Positions 15,544 to 46,307 of a stretch of 64,000 bases of DNA are shown one piece after another (positions within the stretch are counted from its first letter, which is position 1; every line of letters starts with the position of its first letter). The notes under the pieces were generated by a model. The model saw nothing but the letters and a program-made list of their open reading frames with translations. It was not told the origin of the DNA and did not search any database. The position numbers and the translations under genes were made by a program. The stretch is from Bacillota bacterium (lineage in GTDB: Bacteria > Patescibacteriota > Patescibacteriia > Patescibacteriales > UBA12465), in assembly GCA_050259635.1 (NCBI GenBank), contig JBLNBA010000001.1:7329-71328 (forward strand), given 5' to 3'.

Positions 15544-18500
15544 ATGTTTTTAGAAAAACTGGAAATCCAAGGTTTTAAATCATTTGCCAATAAGAACAAG
15601 TTGGTTTTTTCGAATAAGATAGACAGCACCGGGCGCCGAGGCCTAACTGCCATTGTCGGCCCCAACGGTTCCGGGAAATCCAATATTGCGGACTCCATCC
15701 GTTGGGTGTTGGGCGAACAGAGTCTCAAGACTCTCCGGGGAAAGAAGAGCGAGGATGTCATTTTCTCCGGATCCGACCAAAAAAGTAAGCTCAGCATGGC
15801 CGAGGTTTCACTCTATCTCAATAATGAAGGCCGTCTGTTCCAACCAGTCGTTGAAACAGAAGACGAAGAAGGAACCGAAACAGACGCTTCCGGGCACTCC
15901 TTATCACCTTTAGATTATGAACAGATCGTAATCACTCGGCGGCTCTATCGCAGCGGTGAAAGCGAATACCTCCTCAACGGCAACCGCGTCCGCCTGGCGG
16001 ACATCCAGATTCTTCTTGCTAAAGCGAACGTGGGCCAAAAAACATACAGCGTCATCGGACAAGGCATGGTCGAAAATTTCCTTAATACCGGGGCCGCGGA
16101 GCGAAAGGATTTCTTTGATGAAGCAACCGGCGTCAAGCAATTCCAAATCAAACGAGACCTGGCGCTCAATAAGCTGGAGAATAGTTATGAAAACCTTAAG
16201 CAGGTTGAAATGCTACTCGGTGAAATCCGCCCAAGGCTGAAGATCCTGACCCGCCAAGTAGACAAGCTCAAGCGTCGCGGCCAGCTGGAAGATGAATTAT
16301 TATCCCATCAACGCCGCTATTTCCATAATGCATGGCGAGATATTAGCGAAAAGCTTGTCGATGCGAAAAATAAGCTGGAGGCAATCGGAGCCGAAAAAAT
16401 CAATCAGGAAAAACAGCTTGAGCAAGTAAATGCCGATTTGGAAATAATCCGCCAAACCAGTGGCGCCGATTCCGCCGCCCCTCTCCAAGAAGAATTACGG
16501 TCGCTGCAAAATGGACGCACCGAAATCGTAAGAAACATCGCGCGCCTTAACGCCGAACTCGAATTACAGCTCGAAGCACAAGGCCAGTTCGATACCGCCT
16601 GGCTTAATAAAAAACACGAAGAGCTTAAAGCGGAAGCGCAAAAATTAGAAGAGGAGACGGCCGCGATCCGCTCCCAGGCAGATAACCGTGAAGAAGAATT
16701 GCGTGATGAAATGCAGCGCATTGCCGAAGAGATAAGCCTTCGGGACAGCCGCCGACGCCTGGCAGAAAACAGGCAAGAAGAAAAAAACCAGCTTCAAAAA
16801 CATATTGCCAAGCTGGATGCCGTCCTGGAGGCTAATCTGGAAGCACAGGGACAATTCGATATTGCTTGGCTAAATAATAAGCATGACGAGCTAAGCCGTT
16901 CTCTGTCCGCCATCGCAAAAGAAATCGATTCAATCCAGATAGAAGACCTGCGCGCCGAAGCCAGCGGCCTGGATTCGCAGCGCATACAGCTGGATACGGA
17001 AATCGCCAGAGGGAACGGCGAACTGCAGGCAATAAACCGGGATATCCGCTCCAGTGCCAAGCCGGCAGCCGGCAGGGAAGAAATCAACCGCAGCATCGAT
17101 GACTTTTTATCGCGCCTGGATGCTATTAAAAATGAGAAGAGTCTTGACCGGATCAAATCCTTGATCGAAGAAGCCAAGCAGGAATTCCAAAAGCAAATCC
17201 GCACTTTGATCGACGGAGAAAATGAAGCTAAGCTTGAGAAGGCACGCTCCCTGCAGCAAGAGATAATCAAGCAGACAGAACAAAGACAGTCCCTCATCGC
17301 GGAAATAAACGAGATCCGCCTGGAATTGTCTACCCGCCAAGAACGCCGCCGCTTGCTTGATAATCAAAAAACGCAAGCCGAGCGGGAAATTTCCGATATC
17401 AAAGAAAAAATCGCCAAGAGCGAGGTCAAGTTTGACGCGGCTTCGATAAATAAAGAAAAAGAAGAATTGTACAAGAAATTATCGGCACTGGAAGCCGCTA
17501 TCAAGGAAGAGGTCGAAAAGAATCAGGTGGGCGCCTTGATCGCCGATCGCCAGCGCATAGCAAGCGAGCTCAATGAATGCCGACTCGCCGCCTCGTCTCG
17601 GCGGGATAAGATCCAGTTATTCGAAGACAAGCTCCGCCAACTAAGCCGCGAAATGAGCGATGTGAAGGAAAAAATCGCCAAGAGCGAGGTTAAGTTCGAT
17701 GCAGACAAGCTGAACTTAGAAAAGGGCCGATTAGATATCAGCCTTAAAGAGGCGGATAAGGATATTGCGGCGATCCAAGAGCGGCTTCGTCTGGAGAATG
17801 AAAAGCGTGATGACGAGAAACGACGTCTTTTCGCTCTCCAGTCCCAGATAAACAGCTTGCAAACCGAAATTAACCGCCTCAACAGCCAGCAGAGCAGCAT
17901 CCAGATAGAAGCAGCCCGCCAGGAAACCCGTCTGGAAGACTTAGAAAATAGTATTAAAGATGAAGAACTAAACCTGGAAGAAATAAAGGAATATCATCCG
18001 GAAGAGGAAGAGGGCGGCCTCGATGATGAACATCTGCGCAAGCGCATCACCGAACTTAAGAACCAGCTAGAAATGATTGGCGGTATCGACCCGGAAACAG
18101 AAAAGGAATATGCCGAAACCAGCGAGCGTTTCTCCTTCCTGGAAAAGCAGACCGCGGATTTGGATTCGGCCATCCAATCGCTGGAAAAGATCATCGCCGA
18201 ACTGGATATTAATATCAAAGAACGCTTTGAAAAAGAATTTAAGGTTATATCAGAAAAATTCAGCGAATACTTCAAGATACTATTCAATGGTGGAAGCGCT
18301 AAGATCTTCAAGTTGGAGGCCTTAGAGACTAATGAGGAAGGGACGACGGACCAGCAGGCGCCAAGCAATGAAGGAGATGATCGTTTCAAACGCCTGCGAC
18401 TGCTAAGAAAACGCAACGCGCTTGGCTTAGCCGGCATTGAAATCCAAGCCACGCCTCCCGGCAAAAAGATCCAGACTATATCTATGCTTTCCGGAGGTGA

Positions 18501-18783
18501 GAGAGCCCTTACTGCCATCGCCTTGATTTGCGCTATCATCAGCGCCAACCCCTCGCCCTTCGTCGTTCTCGATGAAGTCGATGCGGCTCTCGATGAGGCT
18601 AATTCTGAGCGCCTTGCCCAGATTCTCGACGATCTTTCCTCGAAGACCCAATTCGTTACCATTACCCACAACAGAGCCTCGATGAAACGGGCTAGCATAA
18701 TTTACGGAGTAACCATGAAGTCTGATGGCGTAAGCCAGCTGCTAAGCATCAAGCTAGACGATATCGCCGCTTTCCGCAATTAA
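15544..18783 (+). CDS. smc: chromosome segregation protein SMC (1079 aa; no recognisable hinge domain)
   Basis: N-terminal head LEIQGFKSF...IVGPNGSGKSNI. C-terminal head LSGGERALTAIALICAI...VLDEVDAALD. The central part is all coiled-coil-like. Confidence 0.85.
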   Translation: MFLEKLEIQGFKSFANKNKLVFSNKIDSTGRRGLTAIVGPNGSGKSNIADSIRWVLGEQSLKTLRGKKSEDVIFSGSDQKSKLSMAEVSLYLNNEGRLFQPVVETEDEEGTETDASGHSLSPLDYEQIVITRRLYRSGESEYLLNGNRVRLADIQILLAKANVGQKTYSVIGQGMVENFLNTGAAERKDFFDEATGVKQFQIKRDLALNKLENSYENLKQVEMLLGEIRPRLKILTRQVDKLKRRGQLEDELLSHQRRYFHNAWRDISEKLVDAKNKLEAIGAEKINQEKQLEQVNADLEIIRQTSGADSAAPLQEELRSLQNGRTEIVRNIARLNAELELQLEAQGQFDTAWLNKKHEELKAEAQKLEEETAAIRSQADNREEELRDEMQRIAEEISLRDSRRRLAENRQEEKNQLQKHIAKLDAVLEANLEAQGQFDIAWLNNKHDELSRSLSAIAKEIDSIQIEDLRAEASGLDSQRIQLDTEIARGNGELQAINRDIRSSAKPAAGREEINRSIDDFLSRLDAIKNEKSLDRIKSLIEEAKQEFQKQIRTLIDGENEAKLEKARSLQQEIIKQTEQRQSLIAEINEIRLELSTRQERRRLLDNQKTQAEREISDIKEKIAKSEVKFDAASINKEKEELYKKLSALEAAIKEEVEKNQVGALIADRQRIASELNECRLAASSRRDKIQLFEDKLRQLSREMSDVKEKIAKSEVKFDADKLNLEKGRLDISLKEADKDIAAIQERLRLENEKRDDEKRRLFALQSQINSLQTEINRLNSQQSSIQIEAARQETRLEDLENSIKDEELNLEEIKEYHPEEEEGGLDDEHLRKRITELKNQLEMIGGIDPETEKEYAETSERFSFLEKQTADLDSAIQSLEKIIAELDINIKERFEKEFKVISEKFSEYFKILFNGGSAKIFKLEALETNEEGTTDQQAPSNEGDDRFKRLRLLRKRNALGLAGIEIQATPPGKKIQTISMLSGGERALTAIALICAIISANPSPFVVLDEVDAALDEANSERLAQILDDLSSKTQFVTITHNRASMKRASIIYGVTMKSDGVSQLLSIKLDDIAAFRN

Positions 18784-20293: not shown

Positions 20294-20695
20294 ATGAAGA
20301 ATAAAGTCACAAAGTTCGCAATCACGGCCCTTGTCCTTGTATTCTCTTTTGCCCTTATTCAATCCGCTCTAGCCACCTCTACCCCCCAATCCATCGTAGA
20401 CAACACCACGAATGATTATAAATATGGAACTTATGACGTCAATGATGCGGTAATCTTTGTGATCCGCGCCTCACGTTGGGTTCTTGGACTCGTCGGTTCC
20501 CTCGCACTCCTGATGTTTGTCTACGGCGGCTTACTCTTCCTGATATCAGGCGGAAGCAGCGACCAAGTAGGTAAAGCCAAGAAAGTAATCATAGCGGCTG
20601 TCATCGGGCTGGCGATCGTTTTTGCAAGCTATCTGATAATCCAATACGTCCTGTCGATTTTAGGAATAAGCTGGGACGGAAAAATCCCCGCATGA
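20294..20695 (+). CDS. TrbC/VirB2-like pilin-family small membrane protein (paralog 0)
   Basis: Signal-like N-terminus, then LLMFVYGGLLFLISGGSSDQVGKAKKVIIAAVIGLAIVFASYLI. This is the same two-helix module as the 25303-27811 array. Confidence 0.65.
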   Translation: MKNKVTKFAITALVLVFSFALIQSALATSTPQSIVDNTTNDYKYGTYDVNDAVIFVIRASRWVLGLVGSLALLMFVYGGLLFLISGGSSDQVGKAKKVIIAAVIGLAIVFASYLIIQYVLSILGISWDGKIPA

Positions 20696-25302: not shown

Positions 25303-25692
25303 ATGAAAAAAAGAATCGCTAAACATCTACTGGCCTTCGCTCTTCTTACCTTATTCGCCCTCCCGATGGTGACTTTCGCCCAATCGGGAAACATCGACGT
25401 GGGTTTGAATGAAATCGAGCAGGGATTCGGAGATAACGGCTTAGGGAACGTTGATCCTCGCGTTACCGTCGCCAAGTTGATTAACACCGCCATGCTCTTC
25501 CTGGGCATCATTGCTGTCGTCATCATCTTGCTGGCTGGTTTCAAGTGGATGACTTCCGGAGGCAACGAGGACAAGGCAGCTGAAGCTCGCAAGCTTCTAG
25601 GCGCTGGCGTCATCGGTTTAGTTATCATTTTGTCCGCTTGGGGCATCGCCACCTTCGTTCTTGACAGACTTATCCAAGCGACCAACGAATAA
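25303..25692 (+). CDS. TrbC/VirB2-like pilin-family protein (paralog 1)
   Basis: SD-like aaaggtgg upstream. Signal segment ends ..VTFAQ. Core is LFLGIIAVVIILLAGFKWMTSGGNEDKAAEARKLLGAGVIGLVIILSAWGIATFV. Confidence 0.7.
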   Translation: MKKRIAKHLLAFALLTLFALPMVTFAQSGNIDVGLNEIEQGFGDNGLGNVDPRVTVAKLINTAMLFLGIIAVVIILLAGFKWMTSGGNEDKAAEARKLLGAGVIGLVIILSAWGIATFVLDRLIQATNE

Positions 25693-25782
25693 CCGTTTCT
25701 AAGATCGATTTTAGAAAAGGAGGCCCTTGCACGCAGGGGCCACCGCCCCGTAAATCAGCACTGCTGGTTTCCGGAGCGGTGA

Positions 25783-26190
25783 ATGAATAATATGAAAATA
25801 CATACACTTCGCCGCCTAGCGGCCTGCTTGATATTAACCAGCGCCTTGTTAGCCGGTTTTTTTATACCCACATCATCCTGGGCACAAACCGAGAACAATT
25901 ACGGCTTAGATGACAGCGCCGAAAAGGTAGGGGCCTACCAAGCGCAGATCAATAGCTCGGATAACTTCCTTACGACCAAGGTGGGAAGTATAATAGGGAT
26001 AGTCCTTTCCTTCGTCGGTGTTATTTTCCTTGTACTTATTATTTATGCCGGACTTAATTGGATGACCGCTTCCGGTAATGCAGATAAGGTTGGCAAGTCT
26101 AAGGATATGATGATTAACGCCGTTATCGGCCTTATCATCGTCCTGGCCGCCTACGCCATAACCGCCTTCGTCGGGGATCGCTTGCTCTAG
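25783..26190 (+). CDS. TrbC/VirB2-like pilin-family protein (paralog 2)
   Basis: Signal segment ends ..SSWAQ. Core is FVGVIFLVLIIYAGLNWMTASGNADKVGKSKDMMINAVIGLIIVLAAYAITAFV. Confidence 0.7.
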   Translation: MNNMKIHTLRRLAACLILTSALLAGFFIPTSSWAQTENNYGLDDSAEKVGAYQAQINSSDNFLTTKVGSIIGIVLSFVGVIFLVLIIYAGLNWMTASGNADKVGKSKDMMINAVIGLIIVLAAYAITAFVGDRLL

Positions 26191-26192
26191 AT

Positions 26193-26594
26193 ATGAAATT
26201 GACTATCAAAAAAGCTATTGCCTCATTATATCTGGTGCTTGCCAGCGGATTTATTATGGCACCAGCCCTTGCCCAGACTTATGATTTCTCTAGCCAAAGC
26301 GGTCTAAATGAAACTGGAGTAGCCGCTGGCTATGACACCGGCAACGAGGCACCGACTGTCGAAGGATATGTAAGCCGTATTATTACAATTGTCCTGTCTT
26401 TGCTGGGAGTTATATTCCTGGGTTTGACCATATATGCCGGGCTTATCTGGATGATGGCTCAAGGCAATGAGGCGAGGGTGAGTAAAGCTAAAGAACTGCT
26501 GACAGAAGCGGTAATTGGCGTACTCGTAGTTTTGGCCGCCTATGCAATAAGCATTTTCGTTCTCAAAGCCACAACAGGCACTTTGCTTAAATGA
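26193..26594 (+). CDS. TrbC/VirB2-like pilin-family protein (paralog 3)
   Basis: Signal segment ends ..PALAQ. Core is LLGVIFLGLTIYAGLIWMMAQGNEARVSKAKELLTEAVIGVLVVLAAYAISIFV. Confidence 0.7.
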   Translation: MKLTIKKAIASLYLVLASGFIMAPALAQTYDFSSQSGLNETGVAAGYDTGNEAPTVEGYVSRIITIVLSLLGVIFLGLTIYAGLIWMMAQGNEARVSKAKELLTEAVIGVLVVLAAYAISIFVLKATTGTLLK

Positions 26595-26595
26595 C

Positions 26596-26940
26596 ATGTT
26601 TTTTAAACTTATACAATCCGTCTCAGCCGCTAATCTAAAAGATGCTTTCGACACTAGCGCCAATAAGCCCTTGTCTACCGTTGCGGAAAAAGGCGCCGGA
26701 TTCTTGCCGGGAATATCACTTGAAACCCAAGCGGGAAATATAATTACCGCCATCTTATCGCTCCTGGGCATCTTGTTTGTTGTCTATGGCGTATATGGGG
26801 GTTTTGTCTTTATGATGGCCAGTGGCAACCCGGAAAAAACAAAGCACGGAGTTGCAATCATCACCCAAGCCTTGACCGGCATGATCATTATCCTGGCCGC
26901 CTATGCGATCTCATATTTTATCATCAAAATCATCACCTAA
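26596..26940 (+). CDS. TrbC/VirB2-like pilin-family protein (paralog 4, shortest, atypical N-terminus)
   Basis: Core is LLGILFVVYGVYGGFVFMMASGNPEKTKHGVAIITQALTGMIIILAAYAISYFI. The N-terminus MFFKLIQSVSAANL is a weak signal. Confidence 0.65.
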   Translation: MFFKLIQSVSAANLKDAFDTSANKPLSTVAEKGAGFLPGISLETQAGNIITAILSLLGILFVVYGVYGGFVFMMASGNPEKTKHGVAIITQALTGMIIILAAYAISYFIIKIIT

Positions 26941-26943
26941 CCT

Positions 26944-27378
26944 ATGAAAACTAGAGCTATCAAGCCAATATTTACCTTCCTCCTACTGACCGCCGTTATG
27001 ATCCTGCCCTATTTCGTCTTTGCCCAGACAACGACGGGTGGGACGATTAATACCGGGTCTCAAGCAAACCCCATCCAGATGCTGGAAAATGTAGCTACCG
27101 GCCAATCCGGACAGGGCGGGCCCTATCAGGCCGCTGATGAAAGTACTCTTCCCCAAATTGTGGGCCTAATCGTTAACGCCGCCCTCGGCTTGCTTGGCAT
27201 CATCTTTATCATCCTCATCATCTATGCGGGCTATCTCTGGATGGCCGCATCCGGGAACCAAGCAGCTGTCGATAAGGCAAAAAAAATCATCACCAGTTCA
27301 ATCATCGGGCTAGTCATCGTTCTAAGCTCCTGGTCCATCTGGGTATTCGTGCTGCAGAATTTGATTTCTAAGTTCTAA
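26944..27378 (+). CDS. TrbC/VirB2-like pilin-family protein (paralog 5)
   Basis: Signal segment ends ..FVFAQ. Core is LLGIIFIILIIYAGYLWMAASGNQAAVDKAKKIITSSIIGLVIVLSSWSIWVFV. Confidence 0.7.
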   Translation: MKTRAIKPIFTFLLLTAVMILPYFVFAQTTTGGTINTGSQANPIQMLENVATGQSGQGGPYQAADESTLPQIVGLIVNAALGLLGIIFIILIIYAGYLWMAASGNQAAVDKAKKIITSSIIGLVIVLSSWSIWVFVLQNLISKF

Positions 27379-27382
27379 CTTT

Positions 27383-27811
27383 ATGAAGAAAATATTTGTG
27401 CCGATCTTCCTCGCCCTCTTTCTTTTTCTGGCCGGCACCAACGTCCAAGCCCAAACAAGCACCGATTTGATAGACACGATAGCCGGACCGGCGGATGCAA
27501 TGCGCTCCACAACCGGTCTAGCCGAATTTACTATTGGTAGCCTGATCGCCTTGATAATCAAGGTCGCGCTTGGCCTACTGGGCGTGATCTTCATCATCTT
27601 GATCATTTTCTCCGGCTACCGCTGGATGACCGCCTCCGGCAATGAAGAAGCAGTTAATAAGTCGAAGAAGACCATCCAAATGGCAATCATTGGTCTGGTT
27701 ATCGTCTTGGCTGCTTATTCCATAACCTACTTCGTGTTTGAAAGACTGCCCTTCGGAGGAATTGGGGCATCTCCTTCGTCCGGCAACCTGCAAGGAAGCG
27801 GTACGGATTAA
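27383..27811 (+). CDS. TrbC/VirB2-like pilin-family protein (paralog 6)
   Basis: Signal segment ends ..NVQAQ. Core is LLGVIFIILIIFSGYRWMTASGNEEAVNKSKKTIQMAIIGLVIVLAAYSITYFV, with a G/S-rich C-terminal tail. Confidence 0.7.
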   Translation: MKKIFVPIFLALFLFLAGTNVQAQTSTDLIDTIAGPADAMRSTTGLAEFTIGSLIALIIKVALGLLGVIFIILIIFSGYRWMTASGNEEAVNKSKKTIQMAIIGLVIVLAAYSITYFVFERLPFGGIGASPSSGNLQGSGTD

Positions 27812-40649: not shown

Positions 40650-41051
40650 ATGTTCAGTAAAGACAACAAAATCGAAAAATTAAAAGATGCGGAGACCATA
40701 ATCGGCGCCTCAATCCGCGTAAAAGGGAACTTTAATGGTAAGGGCGACATTGTTATCGAAGGATTCTTAGAGGGATCCTTAAAGACTGAGGCGAATGTTT
40801 ACATTGGAGAAAAAGCTCGCGTCAATGCCAATGTGGAAGCAACCGAGGCCTTAATCAGTGGAGAAATTAGCGGCAACATCAAGGCCCGTAAATATTTAGC
40901 AATCGGTAAGACCGCTAAAATTGCCGGCGATGTTCATTGTGGTGAAATTTCAATCGAGCGGGGCGCTTCCATCACCGGTCAAATTATTGTTTCCAGTGCC
41001 GACACCAGAAAAACCGAGGCTCGAAAAGCCAGCGACGAAGTCGAGGAGTAA
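40650..41051 (+). CDS. bactofilin-family polymer-forming cytoskeletal protein
   Basis: IIGASIRVKGNFNGKGDIVIEGFLEGSLKTEANVYIGEKARVNANVEA...ISGEISGNIKA is the bactofilin (DUF583) beta-helix repeat pattern. Confidence 0.8.
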   Translation: MFSKDNKIEKLKDAETIIGASIRVKGNFNGKGDIVIEGFLEGSLKTEANVYIGEKARVNANVEATEALISGEISGNIKARKYLAIGKTAKIAGDVHCGEISIERGASITGQIIVSSADTRKTEARKASDEVEE

Positions 41052-41854: not shown

Positions 41855-42598
41855 TTAGTTAATAATCTGGCCTTCTATAGGCCCTTTTTTATTACTGCTT
41901 CTAGTAACCCGTTGCTGCAGAATGGTTACAAGAGTAATAACCAACCAATATAGGGTCAGGCCTCCGGGTAAAGTAATACCGATAAATATGGTAATAGCCG
42001 GCATAAAATATAACATTTGCTTATTCATGATCGCTGCCATATTTTCATCCTTCGCCCCTTCGCCTGCAATCTTGGTGTCCACCCGCTTCGCCATCATCAT
42101 TTTCGCCTGCCAAAATTGAGCTGCTCCTGCCAATATTGCTAAAGCTATATTTGGCTTAGACAGATCGAGAAACCCCAAAAAAACCGGATTGATCGTTTCA
42201 GGACGAGGCACGAAGGAATAAACTAAATCCAGATGATTCTGTAGGCCGTCACGAAACACTCTATATACCGCTATAAAAAAAGGTAGTTGGAGTAGTAAGG
42301 GCAGGCAGGAAGAGAATGGATTGACCTTATTCTGCTTATAAAGGTCCATTAATTCCCGTCCCATCTCTTGCTGATTATCCTTGTATTTGACCTTGAGCTC
42401 ATCGATTTTCGGCTGCAAAAGCTGTAAGGCCTTCTGTGAGCGAATAGATTTCCGTGACAGAGGCCAGAGAATCAGCTTAATAATTACTGTTAAGAGAATA
42501 ATGGCCAAACCAAGGTCATGTAAAGTTACGGAATTGTATAAGAATACCAACAGATTCAAGATCGGTTGATAAAAAACTACTTGAAATAGATGGATCAT
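41855..42598 (-). CDS. yidC: membrane protein insertase YidC (short, Oxa1-like form)
   Basis: LWPLSRKSIRSQKALQLLQPKIDELKVKYKDNQQEM..ELMDLYKQNKVNPFSSCLPLLLQLPFF is the conserved YidC core. Lies in rnpA-yidD-yidC synteny. Confidence 0.85.
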   Translation of the reverse strand: MIHLFQVVFYQPILNLLVFLYNSVTLHDLGLAIILLTVIIKLILWPLSRKSIRSQKALQLLQPKIDELKVKYKDNQQEMGRELMDLYKQNKVNPFSSCLPLLLQLPFFIAVYRVFRDGLQNHLDLVYSFVPRPETINPVFLGFLDLSKPNIALAILAGAAQFWQAKMMMAKRVDTKIAGEGAKDENMAAIMNKQMLYFMPAITIFIGITLPGGLTLYWLVITLVTILQQRVTRSSNKKGPIEGQIIN

Positions 42599-42863: not shown

Positions 42864-43199
42864 TTATTTATAAAGACGGTTCAGCATTGCCAACAATTCA
42901 TCTTCTGTTTCCTGAAAAGACGCTTCTTTAAGCGTGGGCAGAGCAATTATAACACAATCGGCTGGAAATGGTAATTTGGTATAATTTTTCTCAATTATCC
43001 CATATATCCGTCTTTTTAGGCGGTGTCTCCCGACTGCACTCTTATCAACTTTCAACCCCAAAATAACGCCAAATCGGCTATAATCCAAGTCATTTTTCTT
43101 TAATCTTAAGCCTAAAAACCGCCCGTATTGGCTACGGCCGGCTTTGAAGGTCTTATCGAAATCGCGGTTTAAATGGAGTTTATGTTTCTTACTTAACAT
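42864..43199 (-). CDS. rnpA: ribonuclease P protein component
   Basis: FGVILGLKVDKSAVGRHRLKRRI (RNR-like motif), positioned between rpmH and yidD. Confidence 0.85.
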   Translation of the reverse strand: MLSKKHKLHLNRDFDKTFKAGRSQYGRFLGLRLKKNDLDYSRFGVILGLKVDKSAVGRHRLKRRIYGIIEKNYTKLPFPADCVIIALPTLKEASFQETEDELLAMLNRLYK

Positions 43200-43512: not shown

Positions 43513-44916
43513 GTGCTTATGAACAACGACCAAATCTGGCAAGCGGCCCTTGGAGAATTAGAAATAAATCTCTCAAGGGTTAATTTCGTTACCTGGTTCA
43601 AGGACACTTATCTGTCCTCTTTTGAAAATGGCCGAGCGATTATTTGCGTACCCAATGCTTTTGTTAAGAAGTGGCTTGAAGAAAAATACCATAAGAACAT
43701 TGTTTCTTCGCTTGAAAATATTTCGAAGCAAAAACTACAGGAAATAATTTACAAAATTGAACTTCGCCACGCCGGCCCGCATGAACTCGCTCCTTCGGTC
43801 ATGAGCATTAAACAGCCAGAAACAGTAATTACAGACGCTAGACAAGAAGCCTCCCGTTCATCTTCGTCCGGACAGCCGGCTAATCGCTTTGGTCTTAATC
43901 CGAAATATGTTTTCGAAAATTTCATAGTAGGCCGAGGCAACGAACTTGCTCACGCTGCTTGCCGTGCGGTTGTAAATAATCTTGGGAAAGCCTATAATCC
44001 TCTTTTCATCTATGGCGGCGTTGGTTTAGGAAAAACGCATTTACTTCAAGCTATCGGTAATGAAGTCGCGAAACACACTGATAAAATTCTTTATGTTACC
44101 AGTGAAAAATTTACCAATAACTACATCCAGGCCGTACAAACAGGAAAGGCTAAAGACTTTAAAAATATCTATCGCAACGTCGACCTCTTATTAGTAGACG
44201 ATGTCCAGTTTATGGGCGGGAAAGACGGGACTCAAGAAGAATTCTTCCACACTTTCAACGAACTACAGCAGGGCGATAAGCAAATCGTAATGACCTCCGA
44301 TCGTCCGCCGAAGTCTATCCCTGCCATAGAAAAACGTCTTATCTCCCGCTTCGAATCAGGCATGGTGGCCGATGTGGGTAAGCCCGATATGGAAACTAAG
44401 ATCGCGATTCTCGAGAAGAAGTCCTTAGAGAAAGGCTTTCCTTTAGATAAGGATGTTCTAATATACATCGCAAATAATGTACAGAATAACATCAGAGAAC
44501 TTGAAGGGGCTCTTAATAAGGTAATCGTAATCCACCAGCTAAACAACTCCGTCCCGACATTAAAAAGTGTTAGGAACGCCTTAAGCGACTATGTTTCAAG
44601 CCTCCAGGCTAAGTCGCTTACTGCCAAAGAAATCATCGAGGCTGTCTCTCGATTTTACGAAATCAGCCACAAAGATATAGTCGGTACCAGCCGACGGAAA
44701 GAGCTTGTGGGTCCAAGACAGATTGCCATTTATCTTATTAGGGAAGAATTAAATTCATCTTATCCTAGCATCGGCCAGGAAATTGGAGGGCGCGATCACA
44801 CGACTGCTATGCATGCTTATAATAAGATCTTGGGTGAATTGAAAGAAAATGATAATGAACGTTTAAAGCAAGAGATAGAATCAATCAAACAGTTATACGC
44901 CAACCCACTCTATTGA
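43513..44916 (+). CDS. dnaA: chromosomal replication initiator protein DnaA
   Basis: WQAALGELE..., Walker A GGVGLGKTHLLQAIGN, LLVDDVQF, sensor regions, and C-terminal DNA-binding SYPSIGQEIGGRDHTTAMHAYNKI. Start is GTG 43513 or ATG 43519. Confidence 0.92.
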   Translation: MLMNNDQIWQAALGELEINLSRVNFVTWFKDTYLSSFENGRAIICVPNAFVKKWLEEKYHKNIVSSLENISKQKLQEIIYKIELRHAGPHELAPSVMSIKQPETVITDARQEASRSSSSGQPANRFGLNPKYVFENFIVGRGNELAHAACRAVVNNLGKAYNPLFIYGGVGLGKTHLLQAIGNEVAKHTDKILYVTSEKFTNNYIQAVQTGKAKDFKNIYRNVDLLLVDDVQFMGGKDGTQEEFFHTFNELQQGDKQIVMTSDRPPKSIPAIEKRLISRFESGMVADVGKPDMETKIAILEKKSLEKGFPLDKDVLIYIANNVQNNIRELEGALNKVIVIHQLNNSVPTLKSVRNALSDYVSSLQAKSLTAKEIIEAVSRFYEISHKDIVGTSRRKELVGPRQIAIYLIREELNSSYPSIGQEIGGRDHTTAMHAYNKILGELKENDNERLKQEIESIKQLYANPLY

Positions 44917-45185: not shown

Positions 45186-46307
45186 ATGAAGTTCATTTGT
45201 CTCCAAGAAAATCTGAAAAAGGGATTAGCGGTCGTAAGTCATATCAACAACAAGAATATTAATTTGCCCATCTTAAATAACATTTTGATACGAGCAAATG
45301 AAAGCGGCTTAGAACTTGTAAGCACGAATCTTGAAATTGGTATCACTCATCAGCTTAGGGCAAAAGTGGAAGAGACGGGCGAGACCACTGTAGATGCAAA
45401 AATTATAAGTGATTATGTGAATCTTCTGCCCAGTGAAAAGGTGGAGTTAAAGGAAGATAAGGATGACATCGGATTGAAGTGTGGTAATTACAAAACCAAG
45501 ATCAAAGGAGAGTCCGCCAAGGAGTTTCCTTTAATTCCTCAAATCGATAAGAACCGGTTTGCTGAATTCAATGTTTTTGATTTTAAAAAGGCTTTGGCGG
45601 GAGTTGCGTTCGCGGTAGCAAATAATGATAACAGACTTGAGCTTTCCGGGGTCCTCTTTGAATTCAATGAGGAGAACCTGACTTTGGTAGCTACGGATAG
45701 CTATCGCCTCTCTGAGAAGAAGATAGGGGTCAAGGGAGGCAATATAAATGAAGGTCGGGTTATTGTTCCGGCTCGTACTGTGCAAGAGGTTCTTCGAATC
45801 ATTTCCGGTCTTAGTGCGGATGCCCAAACAATCGAATCCGATAAGCTCAAGGTTTACCTGGCTGATAACCAGATAATGTTTGCCTTTGACACCGTTGAGC
45901 TGATCTCCCGGTTAATTAGCGGTCAGTATCCAGATTATAAGCAGATTATTCCCGATAAGTATAAAACCGAAGTGGTTATCAAGAGGCAGGACTTTATCCG
46001 GGCGCTTAAAGCATCATCGATCTTTTCCCGGGTTGGAGTCTTTGATATTTCACTGGTTTTTAAGAAGGGTTTGATAAATGTCTTTTCTTCTTCCAGTCAA
46101 AACGGAGAAAGCTCCATTGATCTAAGCGGGGACCTAACAGGAGATGATAATGACATCACTATAAATTATCGTTATCTGCTTGATGGTTTGAATATTATCG
46201 AGAGCGATACGGTTAATATTAAGGTTATAAATAATAATACGCCTTGTGCTTTGTGTGCTGAGGGTGATGATGAATATCTTTATATCGTGATGCCAATTAG
46301 GAATTAA
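45186..46307 (+). CDS. dnaN: DNA polymerase III beta subunit (sliding clamp)
   Basis: MKFICLQENLKKGLAVVSHI..., LPILNNILI, ATDSYRLSEK and a C-terminal LYIVMPIR-type ending. 373 aa, directly after dnaA. Confidence 0.92.
   Translation: MKFICLQENLKKGLAVVSHINNKNINLPILNNILIRANESGLELVSTNLEIGITHQLRAKVEETGETTVDAKIISDYVNLLPSEKVELKEDKDDIGLKCGNYKTKIKGESAKEFPLIPQIDKNRFAEFNVFDFKKALAGVAFAVANNDNRLELSGVLFEFNEENLTLVATDSYRLSEKKIGVKGGNINEGRVIVPARTVQEVLRIISGLSADAQTIESDKLKVYLADNQIMFAFDTVELISRLISGQYPDYKQIIPDKYKTEVVIKRQDFIRALKASSIFSRVGVFDISLVFKKGLINVFSSSSQNGESSIDLSGDLTGDDNDITINYRYLLDGLNIIESDTVNIKVINNNTPCALCAEGDDEYLYIVMPIRN

Follow-up and report, generated by a model that had tools for sequence, protein, structure and literature searches.

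A hinge is taken as a hallmark of SMC proteins: they dimerise constitutively through it, its surface binds DNA, and it has been proposed to act as a gate for DNA. The gene described here raises the question of whether a chromosomal Smc can be built without it and, if so, what lies between the two arms in its place. It is located in a stretch of 64,000 nucleotides (nt) from contig JBLNBA010000001.1 of assembly GCA_050259635.1 (positions 7,329 to 71,328), hereafter the window, in which an open reading frame (ORF) at 15544..18783 on the + strand encodes a protein of 1079 amino acids (aa) that was assigned to Smc from TIGR02168, Pfam SMC_N and head structure matches. No match to the Pfam hinge family PF06470 (SMC_hinge) was obtained in this protein even at E<=1. 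The best overall explanation, to which we give a joint probability of about 0.7, is that the gene encodes the chromosomal Smc orthologue of a bacterium of the Patescibacteria (Candidate Phyla Radiation, CPR), and that this orthologue is a hinge-less, fold-back Smc with paired arm modules.

Duplicated arm modules and the predicted fold-back

An earlier reading of the DNA, made without database searches (hereafter the sequence-only reading), had pointed to two pairs of peptide repeats and a 23-nt repeat in the arms, and all of these were found exactly at the positions and offsets it had given. The peptide LEAQGQFD[TI]AWLN[KN]KH[ED]EL occurs at aa 343-361 and 432-450 (offset 89) and SD[IV]KEKIAKSEVKFDA at aa 617-632 and 705-720 (offset 88), and the 23-nt string is present in exactly two copies, at nt 17404-17426 and 17668-17690, with an offset of 264 that equals 3 x 88. 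In a self dot-plot, 16-17/20 identities were reached on these two diagonals alone, all others giving <=9/20. Alignments of family profiles with hhalign extended the likeness beyond the motifs, with N1 (aa ~313-408) matching N2 (aa ~402-497) over 96 gapless columns (E 8e-32, offset 89) and C1 (aa 585-659) matching C2 (aa 673-747) over 75 columns (E 2e-26, offset 88), as compared with 4-19% probability across 15-26 columns for controls with other arm segments. As judged from these profile alignments, the repeat motifs mark whole duplicated modules of at least 75-96 aa in each arm, in agreement with the duplication of a module of ~88-89 aa in both arms put forward in the sequence-only reading.

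The four modules, whose limits were taken from the hhalign comparisons, are all encoded on the + strand. On the N arm, the proximal module N1 (aa ~313-401; 16480..16746) includes the motif LEAQGQFDTAWLNKKHEEL (aa 343-361; 16570..16626), which interrupts the coiled coil with a predicted helix break at 349-350 and is taken as the ancestral copy, while the distal module N2 (aa ~402-490; 16747..17013), taken as the duplicated copy and absent from ~890-aa and hinge-bearing relatives, includes LEAQGQFDIAWLNNKHDEL (aa 432-450; 16837..16893) with a predicted break at 438-439. On the C arm, the distal module C1 (aa ~585-672; 17296..17559) includes SDIKEKIAKSEVKFDA (aa 617-632; 17392..17439), which holds the 23-nt copy at 17404-17426 and has a predicted break at 628-631, and the proximal module C2 (aa ~673-760; 17560..17823) includes SDVKEKIAKSEVKFDA (aa 705-720; 17656..17703), which holds the copy at 17668-17690 and has a predicted break at 716-719. 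Each module thus has one strongly conserved interruption, which reads G-x-x-D-x-x-W-L in the N modules and K-x-x-K-F-D in the C modules. Residues G347, D350, W353 and L354 of N1 and G436, D439, W442 and L443 of N2 are invariant in 113 sequences, and the N-arm motifs (0.85) are conserved to the same degree as the ATPase heads (0.81).

Structure prediction was carried out with AlphaFold2 on the full-length protein, using the 113 sequences as input, and on the fragment aa 301-760. The full-length model showed continuous helix over aa 184-913 and gave only generic SMC matches in Foldseek. The fragment model had a mean predicted local distance difference test (pLDDT) score of 85.4, in which the scores formed blocks of ~85-95 over most of the arms and dropped at the breaks, and its top Foldseek matches were the antiparallel coiled-coil arms of Rad50, MukB, Smc5/6 and the Smc proteins of Pyrococcus and Bacillus. 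In this model the helices break exactly within the motifs, at F-D in the two N copies and at V-K-F-D in the two C copies, and the break midpoints add up to 1067 (349-350 with 716-719) and 1068 (438-439 with 628-631), twice the apex position being 1062. From these models, the arm is predicted to be an intramolecular antiparallel coiled coil in which N1 lies opposite C2, and N2 opposite C1.

In the central part, the fragment model runs in the order helix 466-504, loop 505-511, helix 512-528, loop 529-533 and helix 534-627. The first loop belongs to a variable linker between arm and tip, SAKPAAGR (aa 504-511; 17053..17076, +), which contains Pro507 and Gly510 and is the least conserved segment of the arm (0.34). 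It is followed by a predicted helix-loop-helix tip (aa 512-549; 17077..17190, +), formed by helix 512-528 and the helix from 534 onward with the apex loop KNEKS (aa 529-533; 17128-17142, +) between them. The tip aligns at the hinge site of relatives, and its conservation (0.66) exceeds that of the neighbouring distal N arm (0.48), with L525 and F548 invariant and F521 and L522 nearly invariant in the family alignment of 113 sequences. Only ~45 residues separate the ends of the arm helices, all of them modelled as helix or loop, and on the model the ~170-aa hinge is replaced by a helix-loop-helix tip of ~45 aa. Several claims of the sequence-only reading can be compared with these predictions: the fold-back apex it had placed near aa 532 falls within the predicted apex, the repeat pairs it had described as mirror-symmetric about that apex coincide with mirror-placed helix breaks, and, of the three short central breaks it had listed, SSAKPAAG corresponds to the predicted break at 505-511, whereas ARGNGE and IDGENE were modelled as helix with no more than a pLDDT dip at 551-560.

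The same arms could also be arranged with no fold-back, two protomers then pairing with each other in a single long antiparallel coiled coil that has a composite head at either end. An intramolecular fold is not enforced once the hinge is gone, the i+j symmetry and the covariation given further below fit such a rod equally well, and a prediction made on the monomer only is compatible with it. However, the turn modelled at 529-533 is flanked by a conserved helix-loop-helix, the linker at 505-511 brings Pro507 and Gly510 next to it, and the hinge-bearing relatives must fold back at the same place, which makes the intermolecular rod unlikely in comparison with the fold-back arm.

Identity of the protein and the search for a hinge

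At E<=1, Pfam gave SMC_N over aa 2-1064 together with generic AAA and P-loop families only. The TIGR02168 model (chromosome segregation protein SMC) scored 588.9 bits, just above its NCBIfam cut-off of 567.35, so that the equivalog test was passed; the best stretch listed aligned query aa 527-1071 with model positions 674-1181, its start lying at approximately the C-terminal end of the hinge region. Both head halves matched the head structures of Bacillus subtilis Smc (E 3e-93), and Walker A, Q-loop, signature, Walker B and H-loop are all present in the query and invariant across the 113 family members. Specifically, the N-terminal ATPase head half (aa 1-196; 15544..16131, +) contains Walker A GPNGSGKSN and the Q-loop, and the C-terminal half (aa ~841-1079; 18064..18783, +) contains the signature LSGGERALT, Walker B FVVLDEVDAALD and the H-loop ITHNR. 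Relative to B. subtilis Smc, each half also carries a low-complexity, largely acidic insertion, at aa ~97-125 (15832-15918) and aa ~925-960 (18316-18423), respectively. The first is apparent against structure 5xg3 and has low pLDDT, the second has low pLDDT at 928-942; model confidence is low for both, and their length differs among family members.

A protein of this kind could instead be an SMC-like paralogue of Rad50/SbcC, RecN or defence type, with the true Smc encoded elsewhere or absent. Rad50/SbcC and RecN typically have no hinge, NCBI gives many family members no name beyond ‘AAA family ATPase’, and ScpA and ScpB were not found near the gene. Against this, the TIGR02168 cut-off is exceeded, whereas the Rad50 models gave 23-47 bits against cut-offs of 700-1000, the RecF and ASRP models also scored far under theirs, and no RecN model is among the 25 NCBIfam families listed of the 44 matching the query. 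The heads are likewise nearest to Smc, the corresponding values being 1.4e-4 for the RecN structure 4aby and 2e-7 for the Rad50 head. There is no CxxC in the query, C679 and C996 being its sole cysteines; the gene stands in a conserved housekeeping context without an Mre11/SbcD-type neighbour; and the nearest hinge-containing relatives are SMCs with the N-arm motif at the same position. A paralogue is therefore considered quite improbable, and assignment to the chromosomal Smc is preferred.

It could further be asked whether a hinge is present and has diverged past recognition, strong divergence being common among CPR proteins, or whether another protein provides it in trans. The search for one was extended with a hidden Markov model (HMM) trained on hinge sequences from the ten nearest relatives that have one, which share 35-42% overall identity with the query. 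This clade hinge HMM found the hinge in 8/8 canonical SMCs (from Bacillota, Chloroflexi and others) with E-values of 1e-11 to 1e-41, but at E<=10 it gave no match in the query or in the other 258 collected sequences. In hhalign, the family profile of aa 440-625 matched the hinge profile with a probability of 0.2%, as against 100% for the positive control. The absence of a recognisable hinge described in the sequence-only reading is thus borne out by Pfam, by the clade hinge HMM and by hhalign, with no significant SMC_hinge match in the central region. In addition, the ~45 residues of helix or loop between the arm-helix ends argue against a cryptic hinge, and no match to the clade HMM was found in a six-frame translation of the window, leaving no hinge-like ORF in any frame of the window for a hinge in trans. 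Both versions of a hidden hinge are accordingly very hard to reconcile with these results, and the hinge-less Smc is retained.

The source metagenome-assembled genome (MAG) of the protein (product of 15544-18780 of the window) carries the NCBI label ‘Bacillota bacterium’. This label is probably wrong, given that the named close homologues are all from Patescibacteria or Falkowbacteria and that the gene content is CPR-like.

Occurrence in relatives, size classes and a proposed mechanism

Aligned with its orthologues, the protein was found to share both the duplication and the hinge loss with more than 100 homologues (52-73% identity, 1066-1094 aa), which carry both repeat pairs, have no hinge and, where named, are from Patescibacteria or Falkowbacteria. 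Mis-assembly of an ordinary smc, with expansion of the repeat or deletion of the hinge, might be suspected from direct repeats with a 23-nt identical core 264 nt apart and from some homologues lacking exactly one C unit, but is effectively refuted by the recurrence of both repeat pairs and of the hinge absence in these homologues from many samples, by differences between the copies at synonymous sites (the same codon being used at only 8/22 conserved residues for N and 12/26 for C), by assembly of the identical protein in both the NCBI MAG (179-kb contig) and an independent Logan contig (42 kb), and by a repeat length of 23 nt that is far under the final k-mer sizes usual for assemblers. The synonymous divergence between the copies indicates, therefore, that the duplication is old and has been maintained by selection.

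The motif copies were more alike within genomes than between genomes, with similarities of 0.639 vs 0.610 for N and 0.520 vs 0.457 for C, an excess that was reached in 0/2000 permutations and that was not seen for the spacers. At the level of sequence comparison, this suggests that the motif copies evolve in concert, by occasional gene conversion between in-frame direct repeats or under shared constraint; occasional gene conversion is proposed because copies within a genome are more alike, and it fits the 23-nt identical tract. In some lineages, derived states common to both C copies were observed, for example KFDSAQIE.

Unbalanced variants were also observed. In P0018, P0019, P0020 and P0065 (loci L085 and L086), which belong to two lineages, one 88-aa C-arm unit is missing and both N-arm units are retained. 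The genes of P0018 and P0019 come from different assemblies and are 4 nt apart. In P0006, a close full-length homologue, the longest exact repeat is 19 nt, and collapse by the assembler is therefore unlikely for the one-unit-deleted variants. One N motif is degenerate in each unbalanced lineage, F being replaced by S in P0018 and by H in P0065.

The wider family was sampled by an exhaustive search of 50%-identity cluster representatives, with size classes drawn from the 150 best matches. Four classes were apparent, of ~715-780 aa (S), 843-920 aa (M), 995-1035 aa and 1039-1092 aa (L). The Pfam hinge was confined to the 995-1035-aa class, all sampled S and M members having none, and was absent in at least 140 of these 150 best clusters. 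Short hinge-less SMCs were found in GTDB species representatives labelled Uhrbacteria, Azambacteria, Saccharibacteria and Patescibacteria. A scan of genome contigs, in which the matches listed were mostly canonical SMCs of Firmicutes and Chloroflexi, served for controls and for a few CPR genomes, and is not a census.

Arm length was expressed as the anchor distance from FFDEAxG to IGGID, and the N-arm motif was counted as G..[DN]..W[LIVM]. The hinge-less S proteins (~750 aa) had an anchor distance of ~345 aa and no N motif in 58/60 sequences, the hinge-less M proteins (~890 aa) a distance of ~485 aa and one motif in 33-42/79, and the hinge-less L proteins (~1080 aa) a distance of ~655 aa (655 in the query) and two motifs in 117/125. 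For the hinge-bearing CPR-type relatives the distance was 603-618 aa with one motif in 6-8/10, and for canonical SMCs 824-834 aa with no motif in 8/8. The L class therefore exceeds the M class by 170 aa (2 x 85) and the M class exceeds the S class by 140 aa (2 x 70), while the canonical distance minus a hinge of ~170 aa gives 654, equal to the query. In hinge-bearing relatives, the motif is found 158 aa (157-158) from the head anchor, with 89-97 aa between it and the hinge; the query has N1 at 157 aa from that anchor and N2 at 95 aa ahead of the apex. From these matching spacings it follows that the query has the ancestral layout plus one motif-to-motif unit per strand, with a hairpin for the hinge. 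The lengthening of the rod proposed in the sequence-only reading thus holds relative to the nearest relatives, the anchor distance in the ~890-aa class being ~170 aa less, and, by these sequence distances, the duplication restores the canonical arm length and does not exceed it. What is added to that reading is the family-wide architecture, the loss of the hinge in many CPR Smc proteins across three arm-length classes and the ancestral motif module.

The tips of the ~750- and ~890-aa classes were missed at E<1e-3 by an iterated HMM of the L-family tip (aa 500-565). The tips of the classes share their architecture with no detectable sequence likeness, and for this reason no ‘tip family’ is claimed. 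In a crude neighbour-joining (NJ) tree of the head domains (111 sequences, without support values), hinge-bearing and hinge-less sequences were interleaved. Outside this set of lineages, an 881-aa hinge-less Smc was observed at L018:10001-12646, on a contig labelled Anaerolineae, and grouped by NJ with canonical Anaerolineales Smc; the contig may be mis-binned, or the hinge may have been lost independently in a non-CPR lineage.

A mechanism can be proposed for the fold-back Smc. The N-arm helix would end at aa 504 and, after the linker 505-511, the short helix 512-528 and the reversal at 529-533, the C-arm helix would return to the head. At an estimated 0.15 nm per residue, ~330 residues per strand would give an arm of ~49 nm, with the two motif-marked interruptions ~13 nm apart along each arm, and the added motif-to-motif unit would raise the arms from the short class to the canonical ~50 nm. 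The protein would presumably still act as an ATP-driven Smc-kleisin complex, its protomers joined by ATP-engaged heads and kleisin and probably also by tip-to-tip or arm-to-arm contacts, one option being that two tip hairpins form a four-helix bundle. Such dimerisation with no hinge would fit the finding in B. subtilis that the fold of the dimerisation domain is irrelevant and that arm length and geometry are critical. The extra unit may have been selected for shifting the arm to the next permitted length class. A much broader proposal is put forward tentatively, and we consider it rather doubtful at present: Patescibacteria as a group would organise their chromosomes with a hinge-less Smc in which the arms, by way of their conserved aromatic interruptions, and a minimal helical tip handle dimerisation and DNA, and whose length is set by paired modules of ~70-90 residues, which would yield the ~750-, ~890- and ~1080-aa classes. 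On this view, arms would evolve by in-register duplication of two-stranded units, possibly via unbalanced intermediates like the one-unit-deleted variants.

Several observations weigh against the fold-back Smc or parts of it. Neither ScpA nor ScpB was found in the 64-kb window (among ORFs of 150-300 aa and unassigned ORFs), nor within 10 kb of smc in two relatives. No parS consensus TGTTNCACGTGAAACA was present in the window with <=2 mismatches, although CPR parS may differ, and ParB was not specifically searched. That N1 faces C2 and N2 faces C1 is a prediction only, because it is based on mirror-placed helix breaks and not on contacts. Covariation, calculated as mutual information with average product correction (MI-APC) averaged on anti-diagonals, was highest at i+j = 1063-1067 when the whole arm was taken and at 1065 when the distal part was taken, but the peak (z ~3) was not above the best parallel-diagonal control (z ~2.9) and is therefore weak support for the register. 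As the one-C-unit-missing variants exist, strict balance of the strands is not absolute. The tip has a moderate pLDDT (59-79) and, with 11 K/R vs 12 D/E, is not basic, so that a role of the tip in dimerisation or DNA binding is conjecture. An argument for dimerisation from the hydrophobic pattern of the tip was dropped, since the hydrophobic share of ~32-33% (hand count) is not clearly unlike that of an ordinary two-stranded coil and the tip is not basic.

Genomic setting and comparison with known systems

The locus is syntenic in relatives, including on a 979-kb scaffold, with genes for L19, a cmk-like protein, smc, SBP_bac_1, a pilin-like protein, HTH_25 and a methyltransferase. In the window, an array of small ORFs (114-144 aa) matching Pfam T4SS_pilin lies at 25303-27811, with one more just downstream of smc at 20294-20695, an arrangement that is syntenic in relatives with 53-67% Smc identity. 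The window also contains the region of the chromosomal replication origin, with yidC (41855-42598, -), rnpA (42864-43199, -), dnaA (43513-44916, +) and dnaN (45186-46307, +), and the minimum of the cumulative GC skew is at ~44 kb, ~25 kb away from smc. A bactofilin gene (40650-41051, Pfam E 1e-25) adjoins the origin region.

A large natural radiation of hinge-less Smc orthologues would offer a test bed for the SMC functions that depend on the hinge and for the minimum needed to join two arms, and, were hinge-less Smc to prove group-wide, it would amount to a natural experiment showing that an SMC motor can work without a hinge. A practical implication is that surveys and annotation pipelines seeded with hinges miss or under-name such proteins, many of which are labelled ‘AAA family ATPase’.

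Like canonical bacterial Smc, such as that of the B. subtilis Smc-ScpAB complex, the query has full ATPase motifs and a predicted fold-back arm and passes the TIGR02168 cut-off, and its anchor-to-tip strands are of similar length (N 341 in the query vs 345 aa, C 314 vs 309 aa). Unlike canonical Smc, it has a ~45-aa helical hairpin in place of the missing hinge (~170 aa, PF06470), two G..D..WL / K..KFD interruptions in the arms that are absent in 8/8 canonical SMCs, insertions in the heads and no kleisin partners found in the window. With RecN it shares an SMC-like ATPase that has no hinge, and RecN dimerises via its coiled-coil tips; RecN is, however, of ~550 aa as compared with 1079 aa, and its head match is weak (4aby, E 1.4e-4). 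With Rad50/SbcC it shares a head, a long antiparallel coiled coil and a small apex, the Rad50 coiled coil being the top Foldseek match of the fragment, but it differs in having Smc-like heads, no CxxC zinc hook and no Mre11/SbcD-type neighbour in the syntenic context.

Hinge-less SMCs as a kind are already published. A clade from marine metagenomes, assigned to Actinomycetes, was described as having SMC heads on an antiparallel coiled coil, with neither a hinge nor a CxxC (Environ Microbiome 2025, PMC12153180), and the architecture of the query matches that published description; the two clades, from Patescibacteria here and marine Actinobacteria there, were compared at the level of that description. 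Arm-module duplication, arm-length classes and conserved arm motifs are not reported for the marine clade (PMC12153180). For CPR/Patescibacteria, no report of a hinge-less Smc was found in full-text literature searches of incomplete coverage, which is absence of evidence only.

The closest experimental parallel is in B. subtilis, where Smc still functions when its hinge is exchanged for a Rad50 zinc hook, arm length remaining critical (PMC5344682). In Smc(Zh) and mini-Smc, as in the query, the hinge is swapped for an unrelated small element, there with a function that depends on arm length. Unlike the query, these are laboratory constructs and Smc(Zh) has a zinc hook proven to dimerise, whereas the replacement in the query is natural, has no metal ligands and dimerises only putatively. 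In the same study, natural prokaryotic Smc proteins fell into arm-length clusters of 163, 238 and 341 aa, ~100 (75-100) aa apart (Burmann et al. 2017, PMC5344682), and, as that survey was seeded with hinge alignments, it could not include hinge-less Smc. Its steps of ~75-100 aa are paralleled by steps of ~70 and 85 aa per arm in the present family. The idea of arm length being quantised at about one coiled-coil superhelical period, derived from engineering in B. subtilis, is thereby given support at the level of sequence by the size classes and the in-register duplication of a hinge-less Smc.

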